DNA of 64,000 nt from an uncultured Deefgea sp. (GTDB taxonomy: Bacteria; Pseudomonadota; Gammaproteobacteria; Burkholderiales; Chitinibacteraceae): assembly GCA_963508915.1 (NCBI GenBank), contig CAUOZE010000007.1, forward strand, positions 55 through 64,054, read 5' to 3'. The notes under the pieces were generated by a model. It ran no database searches. It worked only from the letters and a program-made list of their open reading frames with translations, and was not told the DNA's origin. The translations under genes were made by a program, and so were the position numbers. This document shows, one piece after another, positions 35,869-60,067 of the stretch. Within the stretch, counting starts at the first letter, position 1. Every line of letters begins with the position of its first letter.

Positions 35869-35998
35869 ATTTGGCCGATGTGATGCCGTGCCATATCTCA
35901 ATGAGAGATTAAATAGCGAAACGTAAACAGCGTACGTGTTGTTACGGTCTTCTTGGCGGAAAGCGTTCTTGAGTACAAAGGGCTTACAAGGGATTATC

Positions 35999-36096
35999 GA
36001 GCGGAAATGAACAAGGCCCCAACTTTCGTTGAGGCCTTGATTTTTGTGGGGTGGCTGATGGGGCTCGAACCCACGACAACAGGAATCACAATCCTG
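35999..36096. repeat. att site (distal copy): 3' half of tRNA-His plus downstream terminator
   Basis: 98-bp direct repeat of 59943-60040 with 2 mismatches; identity ends at the anticodon stem. Confidence 0.95.
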
Positions 36097-36276: not shown

Positions 36277-37587
36277 ATGGCAAAAAGCAATCGTATTTCG
36301 TTTACCGCGTCTCGCGTTGAAAAGGCCTCTTGTGAACCGGGCAAAGCGCAGTCTTTTCTTTGGGATAGTGGCGCGCCTGGTCTTGGTTTACGCATGACCC
36401 AAAACAAAGAGGGCAAAGCATACATTTTCGAGAGTCGGGTGAATAGCAAAACTCTGCGAATCACAATTGGCTCTGTGCTGTCATGGACAATTGATGCCGC
36501 CCAGGCAGAGGCGCGTCGTTTGCAGTCGTTGTGCGACCAAGGTATTGACCCTCGCCAACAAAAGTCAGATGAGAAGGCTATTGCTACTGCGCGGCGATTA
36601 GAAGAAAAGCGTAAACATATCAAATTAGGTGACGTGTGGCCTGTGTATATCGAGGAACGCCGCAGCAAATGGGGCGAATGGCATATCCGCGACCATGAAG
36701 AAATGGTTCACCTTGGTGGCGTTAAAAAAATACGTGGTCAAGGTTTGACGCAGCCGGGCGCGTTGGCTGCATTGTTGCCACTGAAGTTGTCTGAGCTAAC
36801 TGTAAAGCGCGTCGCGTCGTGGTTGGCTGCGGAAACACTCGTGCGACCGACGAAAGCGCGGTTGGCGTATCGCTTATTGTCGGTCTTTGTTAATTGGTGC
36901 GAGTCGCAAGACGAATATGCGGGCTTAATTCCGGCTGGGGTATGCAAGGCGAAGCAAGTTAAAGAAGAGTTAGCGGCAAAAAATACGAAGGATGATGATT
37001 GCTTGCAATCAGAGCAGTTACCGCGCTGGTTCGCCGCTGTGCGTGGTTTGAACAATCCAAGTGCATCAGTGTACTTGCAAGGTTTGCTGATTACGGGGGC
37101 GCGTCGTCGCGAATTAGCGGACTTACTTTGGGACGACATTAATTTTGAGTGGAACAGCCTGACCATTCGCGACAAGGTTGAAGGTGAGCGCACCATTCCA
37201 CTGACCCCGTACTTTAAGTCGCTGCTGCAAAATTTGCCTCGTCGCAATAAATGGGTTTTTTCGAGTGCATCATCGGCGTCTGGTAAGTTGGTCGAACCGA
37301 CTGGACCGCATCGTCGCGTCTTAGAGGCTGCCGAGTTGCCGCACCTATCCTTGCATGGCTTGCGCCGCTCATTTACGACCTTGGCCGAATGGGTTGAAGT
37401 GCCTGTCGGCGTGACGGCTCAAATCATGGGGCACAAGCCAACAGCCATTGCCGAGCTTCACTATAAACGCCGCAAACTCGATATCCTTCGCCGCTACCAT
37501 ATTAAAATTGAGCAGTGGATGTTGGAGCAGGCGGGGGTTGAGTTTCATTATGAGAATGTGCCACCAGCTTTGCGCTTGGTCGCATAA
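36277..37587 (+). CDS. Tyrosine recombinase/integrase with N-terminal arm-binding domain
   Basis: FLWDSGAPGLGLR arm domain; catalytic TGARRRE, HGLRR, MGH, LHY. Confidence 0.95.
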   Translation: MAKSNRISFTASRVEKASCEPGKAQSFLWDSGAPGLGLRMTQNKEGKAYIFESRVNSKTLRITIGSVLSWTIDAAQAEARRLQSLCDQGIDPRQQKSDEKAIATARRLEEKRKHIKLGDVWPVYIEERRSKWGEWHIRDHEEMVHLGGVKKIRGQGLTQPGALAALLPLKLSELTVKRVASWLAAETLVRPTKARLAYRLLSVFVNWCESQDEYAGLIPAGVCKAKQVKEELAAKNTKDDDCLQSEQLPRWFAAVRGLNNPSASVYLQGLLITGARRRELADLLWDDINFEWNSLTIRDKVEGERTIPLTPYFKSLLQNLPRRNKWVFSSASSASGKLVEPTGPHRRVLEAAELPHLSLHGLRRSFTTLAEWVEVPVGVTAQIMGHKPTAIAELHYKRRKLDILRRYHIKIEQWMLEQAGVEFHYENVPPALRLVA

Positions 37588-40234: not shown

Positions 40235-40718
40235 CCAAACTGAGAAGAAGCGTCGTGCGGGCAAAGGGCGTGGCAAGGACCGCGATGGCGAGCAGTTTGT
40301 TGCCATTCCGATGGTGGTGTTGAATTCGCCAGCGTTTATTCACTTATCACCGCGTGCGGTGAAGCTTTTGTTGGATATTGCTTCGCAAAACAATGGGCGT
40401 AATAACGGACGTTTATTGGCGTCAAAACGCTTTATGACGTCACGAGGCTGGACCAGTGTAGACCAACTTACCAAAGCGCTTCATGAGTTGTTGGAGCATC
40501 GCTTGATTGAACAAACCGTCCGAGGGCACATGCCGAATAAAGCAAGTTGGTTTGGCGTGACGTGGCAGGGATTGGAGCCTCGTACCGATTACGATATGGC
40601 GATGAGTGGTTGGCCGAGAAGTGCATATATGAACTGGAAACCACCGGCAATTCCACCCAAAAAACGTCCACCACCAAAATCAAAACGTCCTGACCGTAGT
40701 ACGGACTTAAAGGAGTAA
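40224..40718 (+). CDS. Putative replication-initiator-like winged-HTH protein
   Basis: FVAIP..VLNSPAFIHLSPRAVKLLL...LTKALHELLEHRLI; directly followed by an iteron-like array. Confidence 0.6.
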   Translation: MAIDQTEKKRRAGKGRGKDRDGEQFVAIPMVVLNSPAFIHLSPRAVKLLLDIASQNNGRNNGRLLASKRFMTSRGWTSVDQLTKALHELLEHRLIEQTVRGHMPNKASWFGVTWQGLEPRTDYDMAMSGWPRSAYMNWKPPAIPPKKRPPPKSKRPDRSTDLKE

Positions 40719-40816
40719 AAATAGCTCCGTAGTACGGACCTACGGTCAATTGGCCAAGTCCGTACTACGGTTCTATATGGGGGCTTTTTGTGATTCCTCA
40801 GCACCGTAGTACGGAC
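40694..40816. repeat. Iteron-like array (putative origin)
   Basis: Four exact CCGTAGTACGGAC copies: 40694, 40727, 40804 direct; 40758 inverted. Confidence 0.8.
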
Positions 40817-40939
40817 ACCATCTAGATGTTGCCATCTGTGGGGTTAAAAAGAATGTCGGCATAGGGTATGCGTACAGCATCACCTTGAAGTGGTATGCAG
40901 GTTTTGGATTGCCACCAAATTCCAAGCTACATAGTCGCC

Positions 40940-41337
40940 CAACACGGACGAATAGTTTTAAGCTATTCGAGAGTCAGTGTTGCGCACTGCGCACTGCGCA
41001 GGCTAAAGTGGGTTTTGTAGTGCGCAAGTGCGTACTCATCATGAACATTTGTCACCAAGCATCGTCACCTCATTTTGTTTTGATATATCCCCACCATTTC
41101 AAGCCAGCTATTGTCTCGCCTGCGCCGGCTGTCAAACTCGCTCAACACGGATGAATAGTCTTAAGCTATTCGAGAGTTAGTGGTACGCAGTACGCAGGCT
41201 AAAGGGGGTGTTTGAAGTGCGTACTGCGTACTACTCGTGAGACTTTGTCGCCAGGCTCATCAAGCAAGTTCGTTTAATATATCCCCTCCATTTCAAGCCT
41301 AGCTATTGTCTCGCCTGCGCTGCGCTGTCAAACTCGC
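40940..41337. repeat. Diverged ~200-bp tandem duplication upstream of hsdM
   Basis: Units 40940-41141 and 41143-41337 share CAACACGGA..AATAG..TTAAGCTATTCGAGAG and GCTATTGTCTCGCCTGCGC..GCTGTCAAACTCGC. Confidence 0.85.
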
Positions 41338-41360: not shown

Positions 41361-42959
41361 ATGCCCGTGAACACCTCTATTCAAGACCTTGAAAACCGCC
41401 TCTGGTCCGCTGCTGACCAACTTTGGGCGATGACCGACCTCAAGCCTTCCGAATTTTCAACGCCTGTTTTGGGGCTGCTGTTTTTGCGTTATGCCGAAAC
41501 CAAATTTGCCGCCGCCGAAGCGCGCTTTGCTGAGGACGGCCTGAGCGCTGCTGAACTCGATAAAACAGATTTTCAAGCCGATGGTGTGCTGTACCTCACG
41601 GGCATTGCGCGCTTTAGTTATTTGGTGAATTTACCCGAAGCCGAAAATCTCGGTTTGGCCGTTAATATGGCAATGGCAGCGGTCGAGCTAGAGAACGAAG
41701 AATTACGTGGCGTGCTGCCGCGCAGCTACACGCGCCTGGATAATGGCGTGATTCAAGAGCTATTGCGCTTGCTTGCGCCGATTAAGATTGAAGGCGATGC
41801 GTTTGGTCGCGTTTACGAGTATTTCCTCGGCAACTTCGCGATGAAGGAAGGCCAAAAGGGCGGCGTGTTTTACACCCCGACCAGTATCGTTAAACTAATT
41901 GTCGAAATCCTCCAGCCCTACCACGGGCGCATTTACGACCCCGCTTGCGGTTCGGGCGGTATGTTTGTGCAAAGCGCGGAATTTGTGAATCAACATAACA
42001 AACGCGCCGCCGATGAACTCACGGTATTTGGCACCGAGAAATCCGCCGATACCGTCAAACTCGGCAAAATGAATTTGGCCGTGCATGGCTTGTCGGGCGA
42101 CATTCGCGTTGCCAATAGTTTTTTTGAAGACCCGCACGAATCGCTGGGCAAGTTTGACTTTGTCATGGCCAATCCGCCGTTCAACGTCAGCGGCGTGGAT
42201 AAAGACCGTATCAAGGGCGACCCGCGCCTGCCGTTTGGCTTGCCAAGCACCGACAACGCCAATTACCTGTGGATTCAATACTTCTACAGCACGCTGAACG
42301 ACACGGGCCGCGCCGGTTTCGTCATGGCCAATTCAGCAGGCGACGCGCGCGGTAGTGAGCTGGAAATCCGCAAGCAAATGCTGCAAAACGGTGTGGTCGA
42401 TGCCGTCGTCAGTATCGGCTCTAACTTCTTCTACACCGTCACGCTGCCGTGTACTTTGTGGTTCTTTGATAAGGCCAAGCGCAGCCTTCCCCCTCTCCCC
42501 ACGGCGGGAGAGGGTCGGGGTGAGGGGCGCGTGCGCGGCAAAGAGACCGTGCTGTTCATCGACGCGCGCCACCTGTACCGCCAAGTGAGCCGTTCTGTGC
42601 GCGACTTCACGCCAACGCAAACCGAATTTCTTGCCAACATTGCCCGCCTGTATCGCGGCGAAGCGGTTGAAAACCTGCATGATAGTGCGGAACTCATTGC
42701 GCAGCATTTCCCCGCAGGCGTCTACGCTGACGCGGCAGGGCTATGCAAAGTGGCAACGCTGGCCGACATCGAAGCGCAAGGCTGGAGCTTGAATCCTGGG
42801 CGTTATGTCGGCGTGGCCGATGCTGCGGCGGATGATTTTGTGTTTGCTGAACGGCTGGAAGAGCTGAGCGAAGGATTGGTTGTGTTGAACGATGAGGCTC
42901 GTCAGTTGGAGTCGCTCATCGCGCAAAATATAGCGCTAATTTTGGATGGTGTAGCATGA
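41361..42959 (+). CDS. hsdM: Type I R-M methyltransferase subunit
   Basis: [22 protein letters not shown]. Confidence 0.97.
42485..42527. repeat. Palindromic REP-like element inserted in frame in hsdM
   Basis: CCCTCTCCC-CACGGC-GGGAGAGGG-TCGGGGTGAGGGG, encoding [14 protein letters not shown]. Confidence 0.75.
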
Positions 42960-44194
42960 GTGCGCGTCAAAAATTTAAGCTTGATGAGTTAGGTACTGTT
43001 GGTAGAGGTAAGTCTAAACATCGGCCTCGTAATGACCCCAGCCTTTATGGTGGCCCATATCCATTTTTTCAAACTGGCGACGTAAAGGCTGCTGAGCTTT
43101 ATTTGCGTGAATATTCGCAAACGTATAGCGATGCTGGATTGGCACAAAGCAAATTGTGGCAGCCAGGTACGCTTTGTATCACTATTGCCGCTAATGTCGC
43201 TGATACAGCAATTTTGGCAATTCCTGGTTGCTTCCCTGATAGCGTCGTTGGGTTTATCGCAAATCCTGAAAAAGCTGATGCTCGATTTATTAAATACTAT
43301 ATCGACGTTATTAAGCGGCAGATGGTTAGCGCCTCAAAAGGCACTACGCAAGATAATTTGAGCGTAGATAAGTTACTGATGTTTGATTTTGAAGTTCCGC
43401 TGGTCTGCGAGCAAACGCATATTGCAGATATTATTTCCGCCTATGACGACCTGATTGAGAACAACACGCGGCGGATTGCGGTGTTGGAGGAAATGGCGCG
43501 GCGGATTTATGAAGAATGGTTCGTCCACTTCCGCTACCCCGGCCACGAGCAAGCCCAAAAAGTAGAAACCGAGCTAGGCTTGGTGCCGGAAGGGTGGGAG
43601 GTTAAGCAGCTTGGCGAATGTTCCGTTTATGTGAATCGGGGCATTACCCCTAAGTATGACGATGCTGCTGAGGGCTTGGTTATCAATCAAAAATGCATTC
43701 GAAATGGCAAGCTAAGTATGGCTTTTGCAAGAAGACAGTCGAAAGTACCTCCAAGCGATAAAGTGGTGCGTTATGGTGATGTATTAATTAATTCAACAGG
43801 TGTTGGTACTCTTGGACGTGTTACTCAAATTTGTGAAAATTTGAATAATGTCACGGTAGATACGCATGTCAGTATTGTTCGTCCGAGGCCTGAGCTAGAT
43901 GTAGAGTTTTTTGGATTGGCACTGCTTCGGCTGGAGCCGCACTTTGAGCAACAAGGAGTCGGAGCAACTGGTCAAACAGAGTTGAGCCGCGCCCGTATTG
44001 CGGAAACTCCGATGCTCATTCCGCCGTTTGAATTGCAGGTGCAGTTTTCGAATATGGTTTCTGCAATGCGTAAGCAGCCACTAATTCTATCCAAGAAAAA
44101 CGCTAACCTCCGCCAAACCCGCGACCTACTCTTGCCGCGCCTGATTTCGGGCGAGCTGGACGTTTCTAAGCTGGTGCTGCCGGATGTGGCTTGA
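42956..44194 (+). CDS. hsdS: Type I R-M specificity subunit
   Basis: Two TRDs with conserved [17 protein letters not shown] and [17 protein letters not shown]; ATGA overlap with hsdM. Confidence 0.96.
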
Positions 44195-44346
44195 TGGGTA
44201 TGTGGTGCTGAGTGATGGTGGTAATGGGTTGTGAGTATATACCCGTTATGACTGTTTTGCACCCTGTCGCACGCCCCGTGGCTGCGCAAGCCCACCAACT
44301 TCGCCTACGAATGCTCTGTGCGTTGCAGAGTGAACGAAGCCGAAGC

Positions 44347-44452
44347 ATGCGCGCGTTTGCCGAGTCATGGCCGCAAGAGGCAATTGTCCAGCAGGCTGTT
44401 GGACAATAATCGTGGGTGCGAAAGTTGAAAGAACCGCAGTGGCGGATGAGGG
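44347..44452 (+). pseudogene. Remnant of a DUF1016/YhcG-family gene
   Basis: MRAFAESWPQEAIVQQAVGQ* then SW..KLKEP resembles the DUF1016 MRAFAEAWP..IVQQ...QLPW motif; in-frame TAA and deletions. Confidence 0.65.
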
Positions 44453-44456
44453 CGTA

Positions 44457-44906
44457 ATGTCGAATGTGGTGTTGGAATGTGGTCAGTGCGGTAAGGCCAA
44501 TAAGGTGGAAACCCAGTTTCAGATTAGCTGTGGGTGTTGCAAAGCACCGCTGGATACGCAGGCGTTTCGCCCTTATGCCGATTATTTTGAGCAACAAAAG
44601 CCCGCTAAAAAAAGCGGTGTGAGCAAAACGACGATGTTTGTGGTGGCGACGGTGACGGCGGTGAGTGGCTTTTTTTCGGCTGAATATGTGTCGCAGCGCG
44701 CGGCGGTTTCTCCGACCGAATACCGCTTCTTGGAGGCATGTATTTTGGGCTCTGAGCCAACAAACCATGCACGTTATCAGCGCAAAGTGGCCATTTGTAC
44801 TTGTGCATTTAATCAAACGCGCGACAGCCTTGCGGCCAAGCCTGAGCTAGATTTCGTAGCGACGTTTGAGCAGACTGTTACCGCGTGCGCAGGCGCGGTG
44901 CAATAA
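44457..44906 (+). CDS. Zn-ribbon + single TM + Cys-containing C-terminal domain protein
   Basis: CGQC...CGCC, TM MFVVATVTAVSGFF, C-terminal EAC/CTC/C. Confidence 0.7.
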   Translation: MSNVVLECGQCGKANKVETQFQISCGCCKAPLDTQAFRPYADYFEQQKPAKKSGVSKTTMFVVATVTAVSGFFSAEYVSQRAAVSPTEYRFLEACILGSEPTNHARYQRKVAICTCAFNQTRDSLAAKPELDFVATFEQTVTACAGAVQ

Positions 44907-44927
44907 CCCCAGGGGTTAAGCCTGGGG
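44907..44927. terminator. GC-rich hairpin between convergent genes
   Basis: CCCCAGG-GGTTAAG-CCTGGGG; no clear U-tract. Confidence 0.4.
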
Positions 44928-44933
44928 CTGCGA

Positions 44934-45074
44934 TTACTTGGCTTGCGTGTCGCCGGAGTCTAGGCGCTCTTCGTAATCATCTGGCCGCTCATCCAAACCG
45001 CGCGACTCCCAATAGGCGTCGTTATTTGGATTGAGCTGGTTGCTATGATTGTCGTTGTCGTCTTTTTTGCTCAT
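44934..45074 (-). CDS. Small acidic protein (46 aa)
   Basis: Manual translation MSKKDDNDNHSNQLNPNNDAYWESRGLDERPDDYEERLDSGDTQAK*. Confidence 0.7.
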   Translation of the reverse strand: MSKKDDNDNHSNQLNPNNDAYWESRGLDERPDDYEERLDSGDTQAK

Positions 45075-45086
45075 GGGCCAGGCTTC

Positions 45087-45194
45087 TTATTTAGTTTTCG
45101 GTGGGTTGTTATCACGGCCACCGCCTGATGGCTCTCCTGTTTTGCTCGGCCAATTGGGCTGGTTTGATGCGGTCAATGTTTGAGTTGTGTTCAT
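45087..45194 (-). CDS. Small Gly/Pro/Asn-rich peptide (35 aa)
   Basis: Manual translation MNTTQTLTASNQPNWPSKTGEPSGGGRDNNPPKTK*; GGAG RBS 7 nt upstream. Confidence 0.6.
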   Translation of the reverse strand: MNTTQTLTASNQPNWPSKTGEPSGGGRDNNPPKTK

Positions 45195-45216
45195 GGTGAG
45201 GCTCCATTTGAGTTGA

Positions 45217-45642
45217 ATGCTGGATAAGGCTTACCCAGTGATGGAGATAATACGGAGTGGTACTGTGACAGTACGTGACAGCGAGCAGGTGATTTCCCAT
45301 TGGCCGCAATTAAGCGTCATCATTGATGAATGCGGCGGTGCGGCGGCTTTTTTGCGTGGCATCGAAGGCGATGCGCTGGATGAGTTGCTGGACAAAAGAT
45401 ATGGCTGCGCAGACGGTGATGACATGCGCATTGAAAAGCTCAATGAGAGCTTAAGGCAGTGCTTGAGCCGCTATAAACGTGGCAAGAATTTACAGGGTAA
45501 TTCGCTGGATTTAGGGCGGCAATTATTGGAAATCTGGCTGAAGAAATATCCTAGTGCAATACGTTATACCGAACATGAAGAGCTTCGGCAGATGCGAGCT
45601 ATTTCACATGAGCTTGAACGGCTGCTTGCTGGCAATGCCTAG
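45217..45642 (+). CDS. Hypothetical protein (141 aa)
   Basis: ORF between the micro-ORFs and hsdR; no motif recognised. Confidence 0.6.
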   Translation: MLDKAYPVMEIIRSGTVTVRDSEQVISHWPQLSVIIDECGGAAAFLRGIEGDALDELLDKRYGCADGDDMRIEKLNESLRQCLSRYKRGKNLQGNSLDLGRQLLEIWLKKYPSAIRYTEHEELRQMRAISHELERLLAGNA

Positions 45643-45827
45643 CGCGTTGATTGCTAGCTTGTAAGATTGATGCGACTTGGGTAGTCTTTCGTCTATGTTC
45701 AGTTAAAAAATAAGATAATTCAGCAAAAATTAGTTTTCATTAGCTGACTATTTATCCTATTCGCTGGGCGAATTGAATGGTAAGTCTTTGATAAGACTGC
45801 TATTTGTATTGGATAAAAGGACCGTCA

Positions 45828-48800
45828 GTGCCCTATAACATCGAAAAACCAACCCCACATTCCGCGCGTGACGTGTCGGCTGGCTATGGCGAGCTGAATT
45901 TAGTTGAAGCGCCTGCCATTGAATTACTTAAAAATTTGGGCTGGCAGCATGCGGATTTGTTCAAAGAAAAAATAGGGCGTTTGGGCACTGAAGGGCGCGA
46001 GAGCGAAAGCCAAGTCATTTTGCCGAACCGCTTGCGGGCGGCATTGCAGCGGCTCAATCCTGGCTTGTCGCCATTGGCGTATGAGCTGGCGTTTGACGTG
46101 TTAAATACCGACCGTTCCCGTGAGTCGGCGGTGGTGGCGAATCAAGCGATTTATGCCTTGCTGCGCGACGGCGTCAAAGTCACCGTTCCCGACGCCGATG
46201 GTATGCCGAGCTTTGAAACGCTGGTGCTGGTGGACTGGAAAAATCCCGAGAACAATGAATATTTTCTGGCGACTCAACTTTGGGTGGCGGGGGATATGTA
46301 TCGCCGTCGCTGCGATGGTGTCGGCTATATCAATGGCTTGCCGCTGGTGTTCTTAGAATTTAAAGCGCCTGGTGTACATTTAAAAGCTGCCTTTGACGAA
46401 AACCTGCGCGATTACCGGGGGCAAAGCATCCCGCAATTGTTTCACTTCAATGCGTTTATCTTGTTATCCAATGGCCGAGAAACTAAGGTCGGTACGCTCA
46501 CGTCAATGTGGGAACACTTTGCCGAATGGAAGCGGATTTCGACCGAAGAAGAGCCCGCTAAGGTGTCGCTAGAAACCGCACTGCGTGGGATGTTGCTGCC
46601 TGAGCGTTTACTCGACCTGATTGAAAACTACACTCTGTTTGAACTGGTTCGTGGTGGGCTGGTGAAGAAGGTCGCTAAAAACCATCAATTCCTTGGTGTG
46701 AATAAAGCCATCGAGGAAGTGGGCAAGCTGAACGAGAACCAAGGGAAGTTGGGCGTGTTCTGGCATACCCAAGGCAGTGGCAAGAGTTTGTCGATGGTGT
46801 TCTTTACACAGAAAATCTTGCGCAAGCGTCCTGGCGCGTGGACTTTTGTGATTGTGACGGACCGCGAAGAACTTGATACGCAAATCTATAAAACCTTTGC
46901 CAATACGGGTAGTGTGGGCGCTGAGGTTCAAGCCACTAGCGCGGCGCACCTTAAAGAGTTGTTGGCAGGTAATCAGCGCTATGTGTTCACGCTGATTCAA
47001 AAATTCCGCAGTGAGGACGGTGCAGAATATCCGCTGTTGTCGAATCGTTCCGACATCATTGTGATTACCGACGAAGCGCATCGTAGCGAGTACGGCACGT
47101 TTGCAATGAATATGCGCAAGGCGCTGCCGAATGCGGCGTTTATTGGTTTTACCGGAACGCCATTGATTGCGGGCGAAGACGAAAAAACTCGCGCCGTGTT
47201 TGGTGATTATGTTTCGGTCTATAACTTCGCCCAGGCTATTCAAGACGGTGCAACGGTGCCGCTGTATTACGAGAATCGTATCCCCGCTTTGCAACTGACT
47301 AACGAAGATTTGAATGCCGACTTGGCGAGTATTTTGGAAAATGCCGACCTCGACGAGGACCAAGAGCAAAAACTAGAGCGCGAATTTGGCCGTCAATATC
47401 ACCTGATAACTCGTAACGACCGACTTGAAACCATCGCCGCTGACATCGTTGAGCATTTCACGGGTCGTGGGTATCGCGGCAAAGCGATGATGGTGTGCAT
47501 CGACAAGGCAACCGCCATTCGCATGTACGACAAGGTGCAAGCACATTGGCAAGCGACGCTGACACGCCTAAATGCCGAGCTAAAGTCGAGTACGGGTGAA
47601 CATGCCGAGGCTATACAGGCCCGTATCACCTTGATGCTCGATACCGATATGGCCGTGGTGGTGTCGCAAGGCCAAAACGAAGTGGCCGACCTGAAAGAGA
47701 AAGGCCTGGATATTGAGCCGCATCGCCGTCGCATGATGCAGGGTGATTTGGAAGAAGAATTCAAAAGCCCGACGACCAAGCTAAAACTGGTGTTTGTTTG
47801 CGCGATGTGGATTACGGGCTTTGACGTGCCGACTTGCTCGACGCTGTATCTGGATAAGCCGATGAAGGCGCATACCTTGATGCAGGCCATCGCCCGCGCT
47901 AATCGGGTGTCTGAAGGCAAAACCAGCGGCATGATTGTCGATTACGTCGGGATTTTCCGTCACCTCAAAGACGCGCTTTCTATTTATGCCAATTCAGGCG
48001 CGGGCGGTGCGGGTTGTGATGATTCGGGCGATGATTCAGGAAATGTCCCGCTAGAGGCGAAACAACAGCTTATTAGCTTGCTTGAGCAGTCCATTACCGA
48101 CGCGGAAATGTGGTGCCAAACTCAGCAAATTAGTATCACCGACATCATTGCTGCCGAAGGATTTCACCGTGTTGGCTTAATGATGGACGCGGTCGATGCC
48201 ATCGTCGCCAGTGATGATACTAAAGCGCAGTTTATGGCGCTGGCGGGCTTTGTGGCTAAACACTACAAGGCCATTTTGCCCGATACCCGCGCTGCGGATT
48301 ACGCGCCCAAAACGGTTGCGCTGGCGTTCTTGGCACGGCAAGTCAAAGCGCTGATGCCACCCGTCGATATTAGCGAGGTGATGAATGATATTGAGGCCTT
48401 GCTCGATGATTCTATTGCCACCGATGGGTATCACATTTCCGCCAGTGGTATGGCCAAAGCTTTGGTTGATTTGTCGGAAATTGACTTTGAAGCGCTGGAT
48501 GCCGAGTTTAAAAAGAGCAAGCGTAAACACGTTACAGCCGAACAGTTGAAGGGCGCGGTCGAGCAAAAAGTGAACGAGCTGGCGGCGAAAAATCCAAGTC
48601 GTGAAGGCTTGGTCGAAAAGCTGAAAAAACTGATTGATGCGTACAACGCTGGCGATATCAACATCGAAACGTATGTCGAGGAACTCAAGCAATTTACTAA
48701 AGAGTTGAAAGCGGAAGGGTTGCGTGGTGAATCGCTAGGGCTTAGCGAAGAAGAGTTGGCCGTGTTCGACATTTTGACTCAGCCCGACCCGCCACTCACG

Positions 48801-49025
48801 CCTGAACAAGAGCAAGAAGTACGCCGCGTAGCGAAAACGCTATTGACCAAGTTGAAAGCAGAAAGGCTGATTTTGGATTGGCGTTTAAAACAACAAGCCC
48901 GTGCTGCAGTGCAGAAAACCATCAGAGATATTTTTAGAACATTGCCACAACCCTATAACCCCGACCTGCGCCAGGAAAAAGCGGCTAGGGCTTATAGCTT
49001 TGTTTATGACAATTTGGCGGGGTAA
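45828..49025 (+). CDS. hsdR: Type I R-M restriction subunit
   Basis: FLEFKA nuclease motif, WHTQGSGKS, DEAHRS, GFTGTP, MWITGFD, QAIARANR; start uncertain (GTG 45828). Confidence 0.97.
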   Translation: MPYNIEKPTPHSARDVSAGYGELNLVEAPAIELLKNLGWQHADLFKEKIGRLGTEGRESESQVILPNRLRAALQRLNPGLSPLAYELAFDVLNTDRSRESAVVANQAIYALLRDGVKVTVPDADGMPSFETLVLVDWKNPENNEYFLATQLWVAGDMYRRRCDGVGYINGLPLVFLEFKAPGVHLKAAFDENLRDYRGQSIPQLFHFNAFILLSNGRETKVGTLTSMWEHFAEWKRISTEEEPAKVSLETALRGMLLPERLLDLIENYTLFELVRGGLVKKVAKNHQFLGVNKAIEEVGKLNENQGKLGVFWHTQGSGKSLSMVFFTQKILRKRPGAWTFVIVTDREELDTQIYKTFANTGSVGAEVQATSAAHLKELLAGNQRYVFTLIQKFRSEDGAEYPLLSNRSDIIVITDEAHRSEYGTFAMNMRKALPNAAFIGFTGTPLIAGEDEKTRAVFGDYVSVYNFAQAIQDGATVPLYYENRIPALQLTNEDLNADLASILENADLDEDQEQKLEREFGRQYHLITRNDRLETIAADIVEHFTGRGYRGKAMMVCIDKATAIRMYDKVQAHWQATLTRLNAELKSSTGEHAEAIQARITLMLDTDMAVVVSQGQNEVADLKEKGLDIEPHRRRMMQGDLEEEFKSPTTKLKLVFVCAMWITGFDVPTCSTLYLDKPMKAHTLMQAIARANRVSEGKTSGMIVDYVGIFRHLKDALSIYANSGAGGAGCDDSGDDSGNVPLEAKQQLISLLEQSITDAEMWCQTQQISITDIIAAEGFHRVGLMMDAVDAIVASDDTKAQFMALAGFVAKHYKAILPDTRAADYAPKTVALAFLARQVKALMPPVDISEVMNDIEALLDDSIATDGYHISASGMAKALVDLSEIDFEALDAEFKKSKRKHVTAEQLKGAVEQKVNELAAKNPSREGLVEKLKKLIDAYNAGDINIETYVEELKQFTKELKAEGLRGESLGLSEEELAVFDILTQPDPPLTPEQEQEVRRVAKTLLTKLKAERLILDWRLKQQARAAVQKTIRDIFRTLPQPYNPDLRQEKAARAYSFVYDNLAG

Positions 49026-49120
49026 GGGGGAAGGGAGTTTGAATTTCATCACAAAATCTTGAAATAAGACGTTTGGTTGCTTTGTTGTTGGCTCGTCATC
49101 ATAAATTGTAATTTCACCTG

Positions 49121-52100
49121 TTGAGTAAGGCGCTGAGTATGGCTGATATGTTGATTAAACATTTAAATGAAAAAGGCAGTGCCCATTCGGGACTATCCTT
49201 GTTGGTAAATCAATGGGGGTTTGATGAAAAACTAATTCCCAAAGCGTTACAAACAATAGGCGGCCTTTTTCCTCATTACAGCAGGCATGATGAGTCCCAT
49301 AGTAAACAGATTTTAATTAATATTGAGCGCCTGCTCGGTGAGAATATAAAGCTGCTCACGGCTACAGATACTTGGCTTTTGCTTGAGGCTGCGTATTGGC
49401 ATGATATTGGTATGGTTGTTCCTCAGGAAGATATTGCCAATACGTTAAAATTAGCTGAATTTCAACAATATCTTGATTCAATTTGTAATACGCCGAACCA
49501 TGAGTTAGAGCGTTGTGCTAGAAATTTACGTACGAGAAATGATAGCAACAGTTTTTTTGATGCACGTTCACCGCTAGAAGCTGTTGGGCAGTTTGGACAG
49601 CTAATGGCTGAGTGGTTTCGCAGACAGCATGCAGGACGAGCAGCAAAAACAATTCAATCTCCTTGGGATAGTGCTGGAATTAGTTCTCCCCGCACAGAGC
49701 TGATACCTGCTCGACTCTTTAAATTGCTTGGACGAATTTGCCAAATGCACGGTTCACCATTTGAGGAGTTGTTGGCTCCGAATGGTTTACCTTTCCGAGA
49801 GGCGGGTTTAGCACAGGAGGATTGCCACCCCCGATTTATTGCTTGTCTGCTGCGTATGGGGGATTTATTGGATTTGGATGACAATCGTTTTTGCCCTGTT
49901 ATGCAGCGCATCGCGGGTGAAAACCGCCCCAAACTCAGTAAGGCGCATGAAGATAAGCATGCAGGGCTTCGGCATTTGCGAATAGACCGTGAACGAATTG
50001 AAATCAGCGCAGAGTGCGAAACGATTGATGGATATTTAGAAACCTTCAAATGGTTTGATTGGCTTAAGCAAGAAGTTCAAAATCAAATGGTGAACTGGCA
50101 AGATATCGTCCCAAGCCGGGATTTAGGGCTTTTGCCTACACTGGGTTCGTTAAAGGTTCGATTAAGTGGTGAGTTACAAATATTAAAAGAAGGGCAGCGC
50201 CCGCAGTTTGGAGTTGATGGCGTAAAAGCTATTGAGCTGTTGCAAGGAAATAATCTGTACAGCACGAAATTTTCCTGCATTCGTGAGTTATTGCAAAACG
50301 CGGTCGATGCTACTTTGCTACGGCTGTGGTTGAGTAAGAGTAAACGTAAAAGTGACACCGCTGAGGTTTGGGATAGTCCGTTGGCTGAAGGAGCTAGAGT
50401 TGCTCTTGATTCGGCATTGGTAGAAGTTAGCCTGACTGAAACCCCTGAGCCTAACGAGGATATGACTGATAAGTCTACTTGGACTTTAACAATTACTGAC
50501 GAAGGGACCGGTATTAGTCGGGAAGATTTGGCATACATGCTGCAAATTGGCGGCTCACATCGTAATCAGCAAAGGCAAGCTAAAATTAGCGCAATGCCGG
50601 AATGGATGAAGCCATCAGGTACTTTTGGTATTGGTTTGCAAAGTGTGTTCTTGTTGTGCAATGAAATAACACTAACGACTAAAAGTATATTTAGTAATGA
50701 AATATTGCAAATAACAATGCATAGCCCTACAGGGCCACATGAAGGTTTGGTGCTGTTAAAAATACTTGAGAATGACATCGGACGTTCTTTTGGCACCGAA
50801 ATTAAAGCTAAATTTCAACTAGATGCTTTTGCCAAATCATGGACTATATCGTTAGGTGGCAATATTTCTTTGGCCGAAAAATTCGTAAATGCAATGGACC
50901 CTCTTGATGCTTCATTCCCCTATGAAGCGGCTAAAATTGCGGATGAGTTCATTGCATTTTCTGCAAATTCACCCATTAAAATCGTACCCAAGTTAATAAC
51001 TTCTAATGGAAAACAACATATTGATGTTACTGCTAAGGTGCCGATTAGTAATGTTTCAAATCAATGGCGTTTTGTGAATGTTAATAGTCATGCGTTGGCA
51101 CTTCGGTACACTCCCGTTGTTTATGGTCGTTCAAATTGGAGTCTGAGTTTGCTTTATCGTGGTCAACCATTTGAATTTAAAAACAAGGTTTATTCTCACC
51201 TTCAACTGGAGGTTGACTTAATGTCAGGGAAGGCCGGCCATTGGTTGATTGCTAATCGCGAAAAGTTGGCGGGCAGTGCCGAGGGTGAATTGAACAAACT
51301 AATCCTGGCTGCACTTGAGCAGCAGGTGAGGAGTGATATTGCAGCTCCCGAAGATATTGAGATGCTTCATGAGAATAATCGACCAACGTATTCTTTTTTT
51401 CTTGAAGTGATGGCATTGAGTCATCAAGGTGGCTGGAAGGAGTTAGCCCAACTTTTCGATAAAGAATGGTTAGCTTTACCTTGTCGCTCAAAGATATATC
51501 CCACATTCCATGACGCATTTTTGGCACACTCTTGGACTCTAGGAGAGGCACCATCCCGTGGTGAACCTGAAGTTCTTGGATGTGATGTTTTAGTGGATAG
51601 CCCTAGTTGGGATGCTACCCTGCATATTGTTCTGAATGAGTGGTTAAAAGATGACCGCAGAACGGTGCAAGTGCAAGTACCTGAACTACGCGAAGAATCT
51701 GCTGTTGGTTGCTCAGAGGGGGACATACCTACGACATATTTAGAAGATGCAGTTAAATATCGTGTTCGTTATCTACTTAAAAAAGAGAAACAAGAGGCCT
51801 ATACGAACGACGCGTTAGCTACTCGGTTGGCTGCGGTTGCACGTCAAACATCTGGTAATTCTCGTTACTTATTAAATGTAGATGATATTAGGTGGAATAA
51901 ACTATGGTTGAAAGATGATGCTCAGGTGATGGCTCAAAGATTGTTTGATGTGACACCGCGAAATGCAAAATTTATTTTATTACCTTTTCTCTTTCGTGGT
52001 TTGGTTAGAGGAGTGGGGGTTTCGAGTGAAGCAACTTCAGAGCAATTGGATGCCTTATGCAAATGGATTCAGCCTAATTTGGTTTCTACAGTTACGCTAG

Positions 52101-52210
52101 AAGAAATTAGAGAGACTTACAAAAAGCTCATTGAGTATCTTGATGTTGATGTCATGGGCCCGTCGATACATAGTGCAAGATGGCGAACCTCACGAGGTCT
52201 TAGTGATTAA
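49121..52210 (+). CDS. HD-phosphohydrolase / GHKL (Hsp90-like) ATPase fusion protein
   Basis: HYSRHDESHS, AAYWHDIG, QHAGR, MHG, RMGDLLD (HD); IRELLQNAVDA, DEGTG, GTFGIGLQS (GHKL). Confidence 0.85.
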   Translation: MSKALSMADMLIKHLNEKGSAHSGLSLLVNQWGFDEKLIPKALQTIGGLFPHYSRHDESHSKQILINIERLLGENIKLLTATDTWLLLEAAYWHDIGMVVPQEDIANTLKLAEFQQYLDSICNTPNHELERCARNLRTRNDSNSFFDARSPLEAVGQFGQLMAEWFRRQHAGRAAKTIQSPWDSAGISSPRTELIPARLFKLLGRICQMHGSPFEELLAPNGLPFREAGLAQEDCHPRFIACLLRMGDLLDLDDNRFCPVMQRIAGENRPKLSKAHEDKHAGLRHLRIDRERIEISAECETIDGYLETFKWFDWLKQEVQNQMVNWQDIVPSRDLGLLPTLGSLKVRLSGELQILKEGQRPQFGVDGVKAIELLQGNNLYSTKFSCIRELLQNAVDATLLRLWLSKSKRKSDTAEVWDSPLAEGARVALDSALVEVSLTETPEPNEDMTDKSTWTLTITDEGTGISREDLAYMLQIGGSHRNQQRQAKISAMPEWMKPSGTFGIGLQSVFLLCNEITLTTKSIFSNEILQITMHSPTGPHEGLVLLKILENDIGRSFGTEIKAKFQLDAFAKSWTISLGGNISLAEKFVNAMDPLDASFPYEAAKIADEFIAFSANSPIKIVPKLITSNGKQHIDVTAKVPISNVSNQWRFVNVNSHALALRYTPVVYGRSNWSLSLLYRGQPFEFKNKVYSHLQLEVDLMSGKAGHWLIANREKLAGSAEGELNKLILAALEQQVRSDIAAPEDIEMLHENNRPTYSFFLEVMALSHQGGWKELAQLFDKEWLALPCRSKIYPTFHDAFLAHSWTLGEAPSRGEPEVLGCDVLVDSPSWDATLHIVLNEWLKDDRRTVQVQVPELREESAVGCSEGDIPTTYLEDAVKYRVRYLLKKEKQEAYTNDALATRLAAVARQTSGNSRYLLNVDDIRWNKLWLKDDAQVMAQRLFDVTPRNAKFILLPFLFRGLVRGVGVSSEATSEQLDALCKWIQPNLVSTVTLEEIRETYKKLIEYLDVDVMGPSIHSARWRTSRGLSD

Positions 52211-52461: not shown

Positions 52462-53061
52462 ATGCTAGCGGATTTATTACTTGGGCAGTATCGCAGACGG
52501 GTGCTGGCACTACTGCTGCTACACCCCGACAACGCATGGCATGTGCGCGAAATAGCGCGGTTGACGCAAACGCAAGCGGGTACACTCAACCGTGAACTGG
52601 CCAAATTGGCCGACGCTGGTGTGCTACTGGTGAGCAAGGTCGGTAATCAAAAGCATTACCGCGCTAATACTGATTGCCCCGTATTTTCTGAACTGGCGGG
52701 CTTGCTGCGCAAAACGGCGGGAGTGGCCGATGTGCTGACTGCGGCTTTGGCCGAGTTGGCTGAGCGAATTGATGTTGCCTTGGTCTTTGGCTCGGTTGCG
52801 CGCGGTGAAGAGCGTGCGGGTAGTGACATCGACGTGCTGGTGCTGGGTGAGGTTAATTTTGCCGAAGTGGTGGCGGCGTTATATCCACTGCAAGAGCAGC
52901 TTGGTCGAGAAATTAATCCCGCCGTATATAGCGTGGCTGAATTTGCCGACAAAACTGTACAGCAACAAGCATGGGCGATGGACGTATTAAAACAGCCGAA
53001 GTTATTTTTGATAGGTAATGAGCATGACCTTGGAAAACTTGCTGGCAAGTCAAAAAGCTGA
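52462..53061 (+). CDS. HTH + minimal nucleotidyltransferase (MNT-type antitoxin)
   Basis: N-terminal wHTH (WHVREIARLT...LNRELAKL); FGSVARG..SDIDVLV pol-beta motif. Confidence 0.88.
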   Translation: MLADLLLGQYRRRVLALLLLHPDNAWHVREIARLTQTQAGTLNRELAKLADAGVLLVSKVGNQKHYRANTDCPVFSELAGLLRKTAGVADVLTAALAELAERIDVALVFGSVARGEERAGSDIDVLVLGEVNFAEVVAALYPLQEQLGREINPAVYSVAEFADKTVQQQAWAMDVLKQPKLFLIGNEHDLGKLAGKSKS

Positions 53062-54129: not shown

Positions 54130-55587
54130 ATGAATTATTCACCAACGTATGATATTGATTCATTTATTGGCAGGCGAGCTATGGAAACACAAGTCTATTT
54201 TTCAGGTATTCGCAAAGAAATCATCCAGCGTTTGGACAAGGCAACAGAGCGGGTTTTGGTCGCGGTGGCGTGGCTTACCGACAAGTCGCTTTTTGATGCG
54301 CTAGTTTCGTGCCAGCGCCGTGGGGTGGTCGTTTCACTTGCGGTGCTAGACGATACAATTAACCGTCAATCCTCCATTGCTTGGGAGCGCCTAACTGCCT
54401 TGGGCGGTAATCTATACTGGATACCCGAAGGAACAGACCATCATGGCTCTTTGCATCACAAGTTCTGCCTGATTGATACGCATACCGTGATGAATGGCAG
54501 CTTTAACTGGACCTACCGCGCCAGCCGTGCCGATGAAAATATGACGGTGTTTGAAGGCGACGCAGCAATAGCTCTTCGTTTCCAGCAAGAATTTGTCCGG
54601 TTACTCAGCAAATATGGCCATGGCCCCGCGCCAGTGGTTATCGATTCCGCCAAGCTCATGGCGCGGCTATCAATTATTGCTAGCTTATTAGAATTGGCCG
54701 AATTTGACGAAATTCCCCAGCACATCAACAAAATTGCCAACGCCCAAGGGCAGACTGACATTGATAGTTTAATGCAATACGTTCAGCAACAAGACTGGCA
54801 AGCGGCGCAAGAAGTTGTGCGTTGCATTTTGTCTCGGGGTACGGCTGTTACGCTTTATCTTGACCCACTCGCAGAGGCGTTGAATTGGCAAATTCGCCTT
54901 CTGGAAATGGAGATTATTGCGCTAGAAACATCGCTAGGTGAAATGCTGCGGCAAATCCACTTGTTTGATTACCAGCAGAACCAAGCTATTGGTGATTTAA
55001 CGCGTGAATATCTAGAGGTTCGTTGGCGTTACTTGGCCCAGTTACATCAAAGAAAACAGCAGCAAAAAACATATGAGGACGCTGAGGCAGCCAAAAAAAC
55101 CTTCCATGATTATCAGCAAGCGCAATCCGAGCTTGCGCACGAAGCCCAGCCCATTGCACTTGATGCAGAGCAGCAAGCGGAGCTAAAACAGCTCTACCGA
55201 AAACTGGCTATGCAGAGCCACCCAGATAGGGTGGCTGCACATCTGCAAGAGCAGGCCAAGGTCTTATTTCAGCAATTACAGGCAGCCTATCAAAATAACG
55301 ATTTAGCGGCATTGCAGCGCATCAAGCTACAAATTGAACAAGGCCTTGCCCCAGTAGAACAGGTGGCCTTATCCATTGAGCGGCTAGAGCTGCGTATGAC
55401 TGAACTGCAAAGTGTTCAAGCGCAACTTGCCCAACAAATTGGAGCGCTGAGTCAGACCTTGGTTTGGCAAACGCTAAGCACGCACACGGATTGGGCGGTA
55501 TGGTTTGCCGAGCAAGCTGAGCGACTGAGAACAGAAATCGCAAATTATCGAGCACAGCTTGAAGAGCTTGAGGCGATGCCGATATGA
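54130..55587 (+). CDS. PLD-family (single HKD) nuclease domain + coiled coil + J-domain-like protein
   Basis: VAVAWLTD, HHKFCLID..NGSFNWT..ADEN; LKQLYRKLAMQSHPDRV...AKVLFQQLQAAY; alternative start ATG 54181. Confidence 0.85.
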   Translation: MNYSPTYDIDSFIGRRAMETQVYFSGIRKEIIQRLDKATERVLVAVAWLTDKSLFDALVSCQRRGVVVSLAVLDDTINRQSSIAWERLTALGGNLYWIPEGTDHHGSLHHKFCLIDTHTVMNGSFNWTYRASRADENMTVFEGDAAIALRFQQEFVRLLSKYGHGPAPVVIDSAKLMARLSIIASLLELAEFDEIPQHINKIANAQGQTDIDSLMQYVQQQDWQAAQEVVRCILSRGTAVTLYLDPLAEALNWQIRLLEMEIIALETSLGEMLRQIHLFDYQQNQAIGDLTREYLEVRWRYLAQLHQRKQQQKTYEDAEAAKKTFHDYQQAQSELAHEAQPIALDAEQQAELKQLYRKLAMQSHPDRVAAHLQEQAKVLFQQLQAAYQNNDLAALQRIKLQIEQGLAPVEQVALSIERLELRMTELQSVQAQLAQQIGALSQTLVWQTLSTHTDWAVWFAEQAERLRTEIANYRAQLEELEAMPI

Positions 55588-58900: not shown

Positions 58901-59242
58901 TTTTCTTGGGGGCTTGCTGCGCAAAACTACGGCGGGGTGGTCGATGTGTTGACTGCGGCCTTTGCTGGAGTTGGCTGTGCGAATTGATTTTTTATTCAGT
59001 AGCGCACGGTGAAGAGCGTGTTGGCAGCTACATTAACGTGCTGGTGCTGAGAGAAGTGAACTTTGCCGAAGTGATGGCTCTACATCTATTGCACATAGTT
59101 GCCGAATTCGCAGACAAAGCCACTCTGGAACAAGCATGGGCGCTGGAGGTACTAAAATAGACGAAATTGTTTTTGATAGGAGGCGAGCATGACCTTGGAA
59201 AACTTGCGGGCCATTAACAAGCTGATTCGCTCCCCCGTGTAA
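58901..59242 (+). pseudogene. Degenerate second copy of the MNT gene plus partner stub
   Basis: Aligns by eye to ~52683-53040 (GGGCTTGCTGCGCAAAAC, TTTGCCGAAGTG, ACAAGCATGGGCG, GAGCATGACCTTGGAAAACTTGC), with deletions and a CAG>TAG stop. Confidence 0.85.
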
Positions 59243-59889: not shown

Positions 59890-59935
59890 CATGTAGGCAA
59901 AAAATACTGAATTTGCCTACATAGTGCCTACATGA
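59890..59935. repeat. Integrase arm-type binding sites (right)
   Basis: CATGTAGGCAAAA plus AATTTGCCTACATAGTGCCTACATGA, identical to the left-end motifs. Confidence 0.8.
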
Positions 59936-59942
59936 GATTTTG

Positions 59943-60040
59943 GAGCGGAAATGAACAAGGCCCCAACTTTCGTTGAGGCCTTGATTTTACTGGGGTGGCT
60001 GATGGGGCTCGAACCCACGACAACAGGAATCACAATCCTG
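59943..60040. repeat. att site (tRNA-proximal copy)
   Basis: 98-bp repeat of 35999-36096. Confidence 0.95.
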
Positions 60041-60067
60041 GACTCTACCAACTGAGCTACAGCCACC
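59991..60067 (-). tRNA. tRNA-His (GTG)
   Basis: GGTGGCTGTAGCTCAGTTGGTAGAGTCCAGGA-TTGTGAT-TCCTG...TTCGAGCCCCATCAGCCACCCCA, with G-1. Confidence 0.97.

Follow-up and report, generated by a model that had tools for sequence, protein, structure and literature searches.

An HD-CE/Hsp90-like protein on a tRNA-His island of an uncultured Deefgea species, most likely a single-protein anti-phage conflict system

Introduction

What is the role of a 1,023-residue protein whose gene stands directly behind hsdR of a type I restriction-modification (R-M) operon in an uncultured Deefgea sp.? The gene lies in a 64,000-nucleotide stretch of contig CAUOZE010000007.1 (GCA_963508915.1), called the window below, whose positions serve as coordinates throughout. 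A sequence-only reading of this DNA had described a stand-alone fusion of an HD phosphohydrolase with a GHKL ATPase and had proposed a single-gene defence protein. We find that the product joins an HD-CE phosphoesterase domain ('CE' standing for 'conflict effector') to an Hsp90-like ATPase module, and that this HD-CE/Hsp90 protein is most likely a single-protein conflict system directed against phages. It is a further member of an already published, computationally predicted family: systems that combine an HSP90 module with HD-CE were predicted by Nicastro et al. 2023 (10.1093/nar/gkad879), as relayed in the Tiamat preprint (10.64898/2026.09.30.754977).

Gene structure and domain composition

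An uninterrupted reading frame occupies 49121..52210 (+) of the window. The ATG at 49139 is most likely its real start, and the in-frame TTG at 49121 an unlikely one, because all 26 aligned homologues (alignment A1) open with MAD(x)L. The coding sequence read from this ATG (49139..52210, +) comprises 1,023 codons plus a stop, agrees with the starts of the homologues and specifies a protein identical to a 1,023-residue one already on record (P0002). With this start, the spacer behind the hsdR stop at 49025 measures 113 nucleotides (49026..49138, +); the sequence-only reading, which was right that the two genes share a strand, had given 96 bp. All the HD motifs and GHKL boxes that it had listed were found in the translation where it had placed them, and the profile search that it had proposed as a check returned Pfam matches for both domains. 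These matches lie far above chance, and the gene is real and intact.

The N-terminal part is an HD-CE phosphoesterase domain (residues 44-314; 49268..50080, +), which matches Pfam PF24391 with E=1.1e-56 and 192.9 bits against a gathering cut-off of 27, over profile positions 1-262 of 263; the match was confirmed on the genome copy. A helical extension (residues 1-43) precedes the domain, and a beta-hairpin/helix linker follows it to residue ~345. The motifs HYSRHD (H46..H50-D51), WHD (W87-H88-D89; 49397-49405), RRQH (H164), QMH (H204) and MGD (D242) are all in frame, and the H88-D89 dyad that makes up the HD signature (49400..49405, +) is invariant both in A1 and in A3, an alignment of 35 diverse sequences with identities down to 28%. 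Nine residues of the set, H50, H54, D77, H88, D89, H164, H204, H230 and D242, are the same in 35/35 sequences of A3, and six basic residues (R161, R192, R232, R239, R250 and K273) are likewise invariant there. To judge from these residues, the head holds a complete H...HD...H...H...D set of candidate metal ligands, as expected of an active version of the domain. A first full-length structure model, built from the 26-sequence alignment, was good from residue ~380 onward and folded the HD part poorly (predicted local distance difference test score, pLDDT, <50), for which reason the head was remodelled with the 35-sequence A3 alignment. The resulting AlphaFold model is confident (pLDDT 90.2; predicted template modelling score, pTM, 0.90) and has an all-helical HD-type core (residues 1-275), after which a beta-hairpin, a long helix and a strand lead on to the ATPase.

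The second part is an Hsp90-type GHKL (Bergerat-fold) ATPase N-domain (residues ~354-565; 50198..50833, +), matched by HATPase_c_3 with 33.1 bits against a cut-off of 25. The N box ELLQNAVDA (E383-A391; 50285-50311, +), the G1 box DEGTG (D454-G458; 50498-50512, +) and the G2 box GTFGIG (G494-G499; 50618-50635, +) are invariant or nearly so in A1; with E383, N387 and D390 in the first of these, and with T514-K515, the Bergerat-fold motif set is complete. This part is nearer to Hsp90 than to MutL, MORC, gyrase or the histidine kinases. The best 60 of 138 matches (E<=1) in a profile search of the Protein Data Bank (PDB) were all N-domains of Hsp90, TRAP1, Grp94 or HtpG, including Plasmodium Hsp90, and the NCBIfam model 'HSP90 family protein' reaches E=1.7e-13, a score under its cut-off. 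The segment that leads into the N box, LYSTKFSCIRELLQNAVDA, aligns with 'LYsnKeiFLRELISNASDA' of Hsp90. Finally, hhalign against an HtpG alignment from relatives places residues 356-663 onto HtpG 11-294 with 97.6% probability, a match that spans the N-domain and reaches the first part of the middle domain.

The remaining, fast-evolving region (residues ~566-1023; 50834..52207, +) corresponds to what the sequence-only reading had left as a C-terminus of ~500 unassigned residues, a description that does not hold at the level of fold, where the Hsp90 architecture is predicted to continue. In the full-length model, in which this region has a pLDDT mostly of 80-94, every one of the top 50 Foldseek matches is an Hsp90 chain aligned over 424-770 columns; among them are constructs of the N-terminal and middle domains (TRAP1 4z1i_A, TM 0.55 normalised to the target), full-length HtpG (9a6t_B, E=1.8e-12) and full-length TRAP1. 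On the model, the resemblance of residues ~350-1023 to Hsp90 appears to extend from its N-terminal into its middle domain, and a number of alignments cover the length of full-length chains. Because all of the top 50 matches are Hsp90 chains, the tail is best read as divergent Hsp90 middle-like, possibly C-terminal-like, domains and not as a new domain, and we presume it to be the sensor/clamp part of the protein. By position only, two residues invariant in A1 are candidate catalytic-loop arginines: R674 (YRGQ) and R707 (ANR-D/E-KL, which recalls the 'SRE' of Hsp90). The GC content is 0.418 at 50001-52000, which covers the tail region, compared with ~0.50 in the R-M genes.

Distribution and conservation of the family

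At least 384 full-length relatives of 46-63% identity came up in a word-indexed search; they belong to Pseudomonas, Burkholderia, Methylomonas, Alcaligenes, Dyella, Stenotrophomonas and other genera. HMMER, run exhaustively against 1.84 billion cluster representatives (50% identity), gave 803 at E<=1e-30. Of these 803, nearly all of the best 150 are ~900-1,050 residues long; the match begins at residue 1 or close to it in those that have their N-terminus, and it often stops at residues 530-730. Mean pairwise identity falls from 0.70 in HD-CE to 0.56 in the ATPase N-domain, 0.37 in residues 546-735 and 0.31 in residues 736-1023; the family thus combines a conserved enzymatic head with a rapidly diverging tail. 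The 61 homologue loci taken from GTDB, with one genome per species, cover the Beta-, Gamma- and Alphaproteobacteria, Bacteroidales, Leptospiraceae, Treponemataceae, Lachnospiraceae and others. The distribution is patchy across phyla and takes in the Proteobacteria, Bacteroidota, Spirochaetes and Firmicutes. Three loci (L025, L029 and L058) carry broken copies of the gene.

We also considered whether the family is plasmid- or phage-borne and rejected this, since a relative occurs on 4 of 72,556 plasmids and, among phage records, on one 7-kb metagenomic fragment labelled 'phage'. In one proteobacterial metagenome-assembled genome (MAG), two divergent HD-CE/Hsp90 paralogues stand almost in tandem (L053 10001-16205), the second of 824 residues and 24% identical. 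In this locus and in L019 (5926-9945), the upstream neighbour is a 1,339-residue protein with a helix-turn-helix, Mrr_cat and STAND (AAA_16/NB-ARC) arrangement.

Genomic context

In this Deefgea genome, the HD-CE/Hsp90 gene is cargo of a ~24-kb integrative island at tRNA-His (59991-60066, -). Two direct repeats of family D3 bound the island: the left copy, of 128 nucleotides (35969..36096), contains a duplicated 3' fragment of tRNA-His and has 91% identity to the right copy (59913..60040), which itself overlaps the 3' 50 nucleotides of the tRNA gene, the insertion site. A tyrosine integrase of the P4 type (36277..37587, +; Pfam Phage_integrase and Arm-DNA-bind_3) lies just inside the left repeat. 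The DNA outside the repeats holds cstA at one end of the island and tRNA-His/Arg/Pro with folD at the other. The cargo consists of the type I R-M operon, the HD-CE/Hsp90 gene, a nucleotidyltransferase gene, and a PLD-nuclease/J-domain gene accompanied by a gene for a Trp-rich repeat protein. In a complete genome from this genus (G006), the flanks are 91-96% identical, and 5.6 kb of unrelated DNA takes the place of the 24-kb island (L075 14387-20000 plus L073 1-1474). Since this sister genome shows the same flanks with different cargo, the tRNA-His site is a variable, recurrent spot of integration.

The gene is present in a single copy in its genome, and none of 60 relatives (9 share its genus, 27 its family and 24 its order) has a homologue. 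Those relatives yielded only weak matches at the level of HtpG, over residues 426-549 with E values of 8e-6 to 1e-3, in open reading frames (ORFs) of ~630-905 residues that were HtpG where sampled. The HD-CE/Hsp90 gene was acquired horizontally.

To find genes that accompany the homologues, we clustered, all against all, 983 ORFs from the 61 loci plus the window, and no neighbour cluster was common to more than one lineage. No partner gene is conserved over the 61 loci, which bears out the earlier description of the gene as stand-alone. Ten homologue contexts annotated with Pfam are all different, and the 56 immediate neighbours at 30 independent loci mix mobility and defence genes with ordinary ones. 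The mobility and defence genes comprise integrases, a Tn3 transposase, parts of type I, II, III and IIG R-M systems (methylase or restriction subunits), AriA-like ATPases, mads and PDC-S06. The closest homologue, at 63% identity, adjoins BrxR and a ubiquitin-like conjugation system; others adjoin a 1,277-residue SIR2 protein (SIR2_2) or CcdAB.

Neighbours recur only within Acinetobacter and Psychrobacter, where they are syntenic housekeeping genes. Copies in Acinetobacter stand beside fadA/fadB (L026, L030, L032-L037, L039, L040, L042 and L047), and those in Psychrobacter between a gene for an AmpD-like amidase and purL (L021, L022, L024, L025, L027, L028, L031, L056 and L057). In the Moraxellaceae copies, only residues 1-570 align with the Deefgea protein, the tail being unrelated in sequence, and variable small genes adjoin the HD-CE/Hsp90 gene. 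This locus looks like a long-lived hotspot or a case of vertical retention, which would be unusual for a defence gene. The sequence-only reading had named homologues seated mainly in conserved housekeeping loci as an observation that would speak against defence; across the family this is not the case, and fixed spots are confined to these Acinetobacter and Psychrobacter sub-lineages.

Comparison with known systems

Nicastro, Burroughs, Iyer and Aravind reportedly name Calcineurin-CE, HD-CE and PRTase-CE in the abstract of their 2023 study and present HSP90 and HSP70 modules as analogues of STAND NTPases. As those HSP90-module/HD-CE systems are characterised in the Tiamat preprint, the Deefgea protein shares with them an N-terminal HD-CE, an Hsp90-like ATPase, a rapidly evolving C-terminus, its form as a single stand-alone protein and its residence in a defence island. 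The domain order and the gradient of conservation agree (0.70/0.56/0.37/0.31, with the same pattern in 150 representatives), as do the patchy, horizontal distribution and the association with defence and mobile genes. Nothing structural sets the Deefgea protein apart, and it is 63% identical to the nearest homologue on record; what is particular to it is that it is carried by an integrative island at tRNA-His and directly follows a type I hsdR.

Calcineurin-CE (PUA-Cal-HAD of E. coli ECOR28) is, like HD-CE, a conflict-effector phosphoesterase named in the same 2023 study and fused to a sensor. Experiments have shown that it depletes dNTPs and aborts infection (10.64898/2026.01.15.699771), and it may be the best experimental analogue for the way in which an HD-CE/Hsp90 protein would work. 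It differs in its calcineurin-like fold, its PUA sensor that binds m6-dAMP, its two genes and its filaments. A second likeness is to Tiamat (TmtA), which is also one large protein that combines an Hsp90-like GHKL ATPase with a hydrolytic effector. Defence by Tiamat depends on the ATPase site, and activation of a clamp type has been proposed (Millman et al. 2022; 10.64898/2026.09.30.754977). Tiamat, however, has an N-terminal ATPase, TPR-like folds and a C-terminal PD-(D/E)xK nuclease, whereas the Deefgea effector is N-terminal and of the HD type. The Pfam matches of the Deefgea protein include neither DUF3684 nor NOV_C (the core and the nuclease of Tiamat), and the preprint places Hsp90-like HD/calcineurin proteins in a clade separate from Tiamat (10.64898/2026.09.30.754977). 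Membership in Tiamat was rejected, the PADLOC model of TmtA matching the ATPase only, with E=0.036 and over profile positions 36-128 of 1,302. Nor did we accept membership in any other PADLOC system, the only matches, all marginal, being to the C-terminal region of RT_UG24 (E=5e-6), to PDC-M66A and to TmtA.

With HtpG/Hsp90 the protein shares the Bergerat N-domain motifs, the pre-N-box pattern 'LY..k...RELL.NA.DA', the N-M(-C) fold and a module size of ~670 residues; unlike HtpG, it carries an extra HD-CE head of 350 residues, and the similarity in sequence goes no farther than the beginning of the middle domain. A housekeeping HtpG identity was rejected on the NCBIfam scores (PRK05218, 32 bits versus 371; PRK14083, 49.9 versus 455). 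For the head, the defensive HD dNTPases (dGTPase/SAMHD1-like; Clover CloA) offer a functional model, as metal-dependent phosphohydrolases of the HD superfamily that starve phages of nucleotides (Clover CloA, 10.1101/2025.07.09.663793). They differ in having no detectable sequence relationship to HD-CE (the fold match to 3irh reaches only E~1), in their control by oligomerisation or nucleotide signals, and in lacking a fused Hsp90 module.

Proposed function and alternatives

The single-gene defence role put forward in the sequence-only reading stands in so far as the gene is stand-alone, its HD and GHKL domains are intact, it sits on a mobile defence island and it is missing from 60 relatives. 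It was not new, given the published prediction, and it had missed the Hsp90 nature of the GHKL part and of the domains downstream. On balance we favour the following mode of action, in which the behaviour as a dimeric clamp, what triggers it, what it hydrolyses and the resulting phenotype are inferred. The protein would be a latent, dimeric Hsp90-like clamp, whose divergent middle/C-terminal surface would bind an infection-associated ligand or 'client' (a phage protein or some other abnormal molecule). Client binding and the ATP-driven closing cycle of the Hsp90 module would then lift the inhibition of the HD-CE head, which would hydrolyse phosphate-rich small nucleotides (NTP, dNTP or related). 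The loss of nucleotides would starve phage replication and arrest or kill the infected cell, that is, bring about abortive infection.

Several observations weigh against this interpretation. The literature search found no experimental work on any HD-CE/Hsp90 protein, with no phenotype, substrate or trigger reported; the Tiamat preprint of October 2026 still terms these proteins 'putative' antiphage (10.64898/2026.09.30.754977); and PADLOC has no model for the architecture. Many homologues stand among ordinary metabolic genes, and in Acinetobacter and Psychrobacter the gene keeps to one fixed chromosomal locus per genus, which is less typical of a mobile defence gene. The likeness of the tail to Hsp90 middle and C-terminal domains is structural only (target-normalised TM 0.35-0.55), and hhalign of residues 545-1023 against the middle and C-terminal domains of HtpG gives a probability of 0.2%. 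As for the head, the Foldseek search of the PDB with the model returned no close solved relative, the best match being the HD-like domain of the exopolyphosphatase PPX/GppA (E=9e-3), and a sequence profile compared with the PDB reached E=0.12 at best. The next Foldseek matches are cyclic-nucleotide phosphodiesterases, with a dNTPase (3irh) at E~1. The lack of a close fold relative makes the substrate of HD-CE a guess.

The alternative that survives best, although we think it rather unlikely, is that the architecture and the defence role hold but the HD-CE head cuts DNA or RNA as a nuclease, in the manner of the Cas3 HD domain. HD domains as a class include nucleases, the Deefgea island and the neighbourhoods of the homologues are rich in systems that target nucleic acids, and no structural match links HD-CE specifically to dNTPases. 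Moreover, the related Hsp90-like Tiamat protein is reported to be a DNase (10.64898/2026.09.30.754977). Small phosphate-rich substrates are nevertheless favoured by the six invariant Arg/Lys residues that accompany the metal ligands and by the best fold matches, which, weak as they are, fall on phosphoesterases of polyphosphate/pppGpp and of cyclic nucleotides and not on Cas3. Nucleotide targeting by HD-CE was also predicted by those who named the family, as the Tiamat preprint relays (10.64898/2026.09.30.754977), and the sibling Calcineurin-CE depletes dNTPs.

The position behind hsdR (45804-49025, +) suggests a different alternative, namely that the protein is a guard or back-up held latent by HsdR/HsdMS and freed when a phage anti-restriction protein disables restriction, as PrrC is with EcoprrI. 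The HD-CE/Hsp90 gene follows hsdR on the same strand after 113 nucleotides, and no consensus promoter or terminator was predicted in this spacer, in a scan that was uninformative. Homologues adjoin hsdR in two more, unrelated type I operons. In a Bacteroidales MAG, the homologue lies between hsdS and hsdR, with HsdM 36% and HsdR 31% identical to those of the Deefgea operon. On a metagenome contig (L080 1-19081, which carries P0005), the order is hsdM, hsdS, Fic/RhuM, hsdR, a YgjP-like gene, the HD-CE/Hsp90 gene, DUF4238, an unidentified gene and a second hsdR; here the homologue is 60% identical to the Deefgea protein and its HsdR only 28% identical to the Deefgea HsdR. Type I R-M operons are, in addition, known to harbour embedded defence genes (10.1101/2024.01.29.577857). 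However, adjacency to a type I hsdR is seen in these 3 operons, plus one locus with hsdM nearby, among ~40 independent contexts, without consistent co-occurrence of the homologues with hsdMSR; about nine in ten contexts have no R-M gene nearby, and the placement relative to hsdR varies (before it, after it, or after YgjP). Three juxtapositions in ~40 are too few to point to an obligate R-M partnership, and such adjacency is expected of any resident of a defence island. The three juxtapositions fit residence in defence islands and the presence of embedded genes in type I operons, and we regard a guard function as improbable. A more specific form, for the hsdR-adjacent copies in Deefgea, the Bacteroidales MAG and the metagenome contig, appears more doubtful still: the Hsp90-like clamp would hold or monitor HsdR as its client and so guard the restriction enzyme, and a phage anti-restriction factor that disables or unfolds the R-M complex would free the HD-CE hydrolase, a PrrC-like second line built on a chaperone fold.

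A non-immune role, as a chaperone-coupled phosphohydrolase of nucleotides or alarmones in stress physiology or as an addiction/toxin module that stabilises the island, could draw on housekeeping HtpG as the closest cellular relative of the ATPase, on PPX/GppA-type enzymes of polyphosphate and (p)ppGpp metabolism as the best HD fold matches, on the fixed loci beside fadAB (Acinetobacter) or purL (Psychrobacter) and on the homologues found among metabolic genes, but it is very improbable in view of the absence of the gene from 60/60 relatives (9 of them of the same genus), the patchy distribution across phyla, the broken copies (L025, L029, L058), the rapidly diverging tail, the repeated adjacency to defence and mobility genes and an NCBIfam HtpG score of 32 bits against a cut-off of 371.

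If the favoured clamp-and-hydrolase mechanism is true, an Hsp90 chaperone clamp has been turned into a bacterial immune sensor that switches on a nucleotide-destroying enzyme, and infection would be detected through protein 'clients' and not through nucleic acids. HD-CE would then be the third enzyme fold in nucleotide-depletion immunity, after the SAMHD1-like HD dNTPases and Calcineurin-CE. Searches of structures and literature found no solved structure or assay of any HD-CE member; with a structure and a substrate to be established for the HD-CE fold as well as for the whole protein, any well-behaved member is a worthwhile target. The genomic observation itself adds little beyond the published prediction. 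The Deefgea copy is intact and stands beside a type I R-M operon in a compact and clearly bounded island of an ordinary, gammaproteobacterium-like genome, which makes it convenient to clone, either together with its neighbours or by itself.

Other features of the island

The type I R-M operon (41361..49025, +), annotated with Pfam, consists of hsdM (41361-42959, +), hsdS (42956-44194, +) and hsdR. The gene upstream of the HD-CE/Hsp90 gene had been called hsdR from the sequence, and its product is indeed a full type I HsdR, with HSDR_N, SWI2_SNF2, T1R_D3-like and T1RH-like_C domains in Pfam. Between hsdS and hsdR lie two small ORFs of 179 and 141 residues (44367-44906 and 45217-45642, both +), without a match in Pfam or PADLOC, which could be genes embedded in the operon. 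In the non-coding DNA upstream of hsdM (40930-41320), a segment of ~195 nucleotides is tandemly duplicated, with 84-100% identity over four collinear pieces, and three copies of the palindromic CCGTAGTACGGAC occur at 40694-40819; the duplication and the palindromes may be regulatory.

Just downstream of the HD-CE/Hsp90 gene is a winged-helix and nucleotidyltransferase gene (52462-53061, +), which matches the PADLOC candidate PDC-M05A (E=5.7e-81). A degenerate second copy, comprising the 3' two-thirds at 78% identity in three repeat segments, lies at 58905-59220, 6.2 kb beyond the first and near the right end of the island, and no PDC-M05B-like partner ORF of at least 80 residues is visible beside either copy. 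Farther along, the window encodes at 54130-58244 a PLD nuclease fused to a J-domain, with an overlapping gene for a Trp-rich repeat protein. We tried the nucleotidyltransferase and this pair as partners of the HD-CE/Hsp90 gene and rejected them, as they have no counterparts beside its homologues; the PLD/J-domain and Trp-rich genes, in particular, have no homologue beside any of the 61 HD-CE/Hsp90 loci. The PLD nuclease shows weak similarity to DrmC/DpdK. Two of the defence candidates on this island thus have a chaperone theme: one is Hsp90-like, and the other recruits Hsp70.

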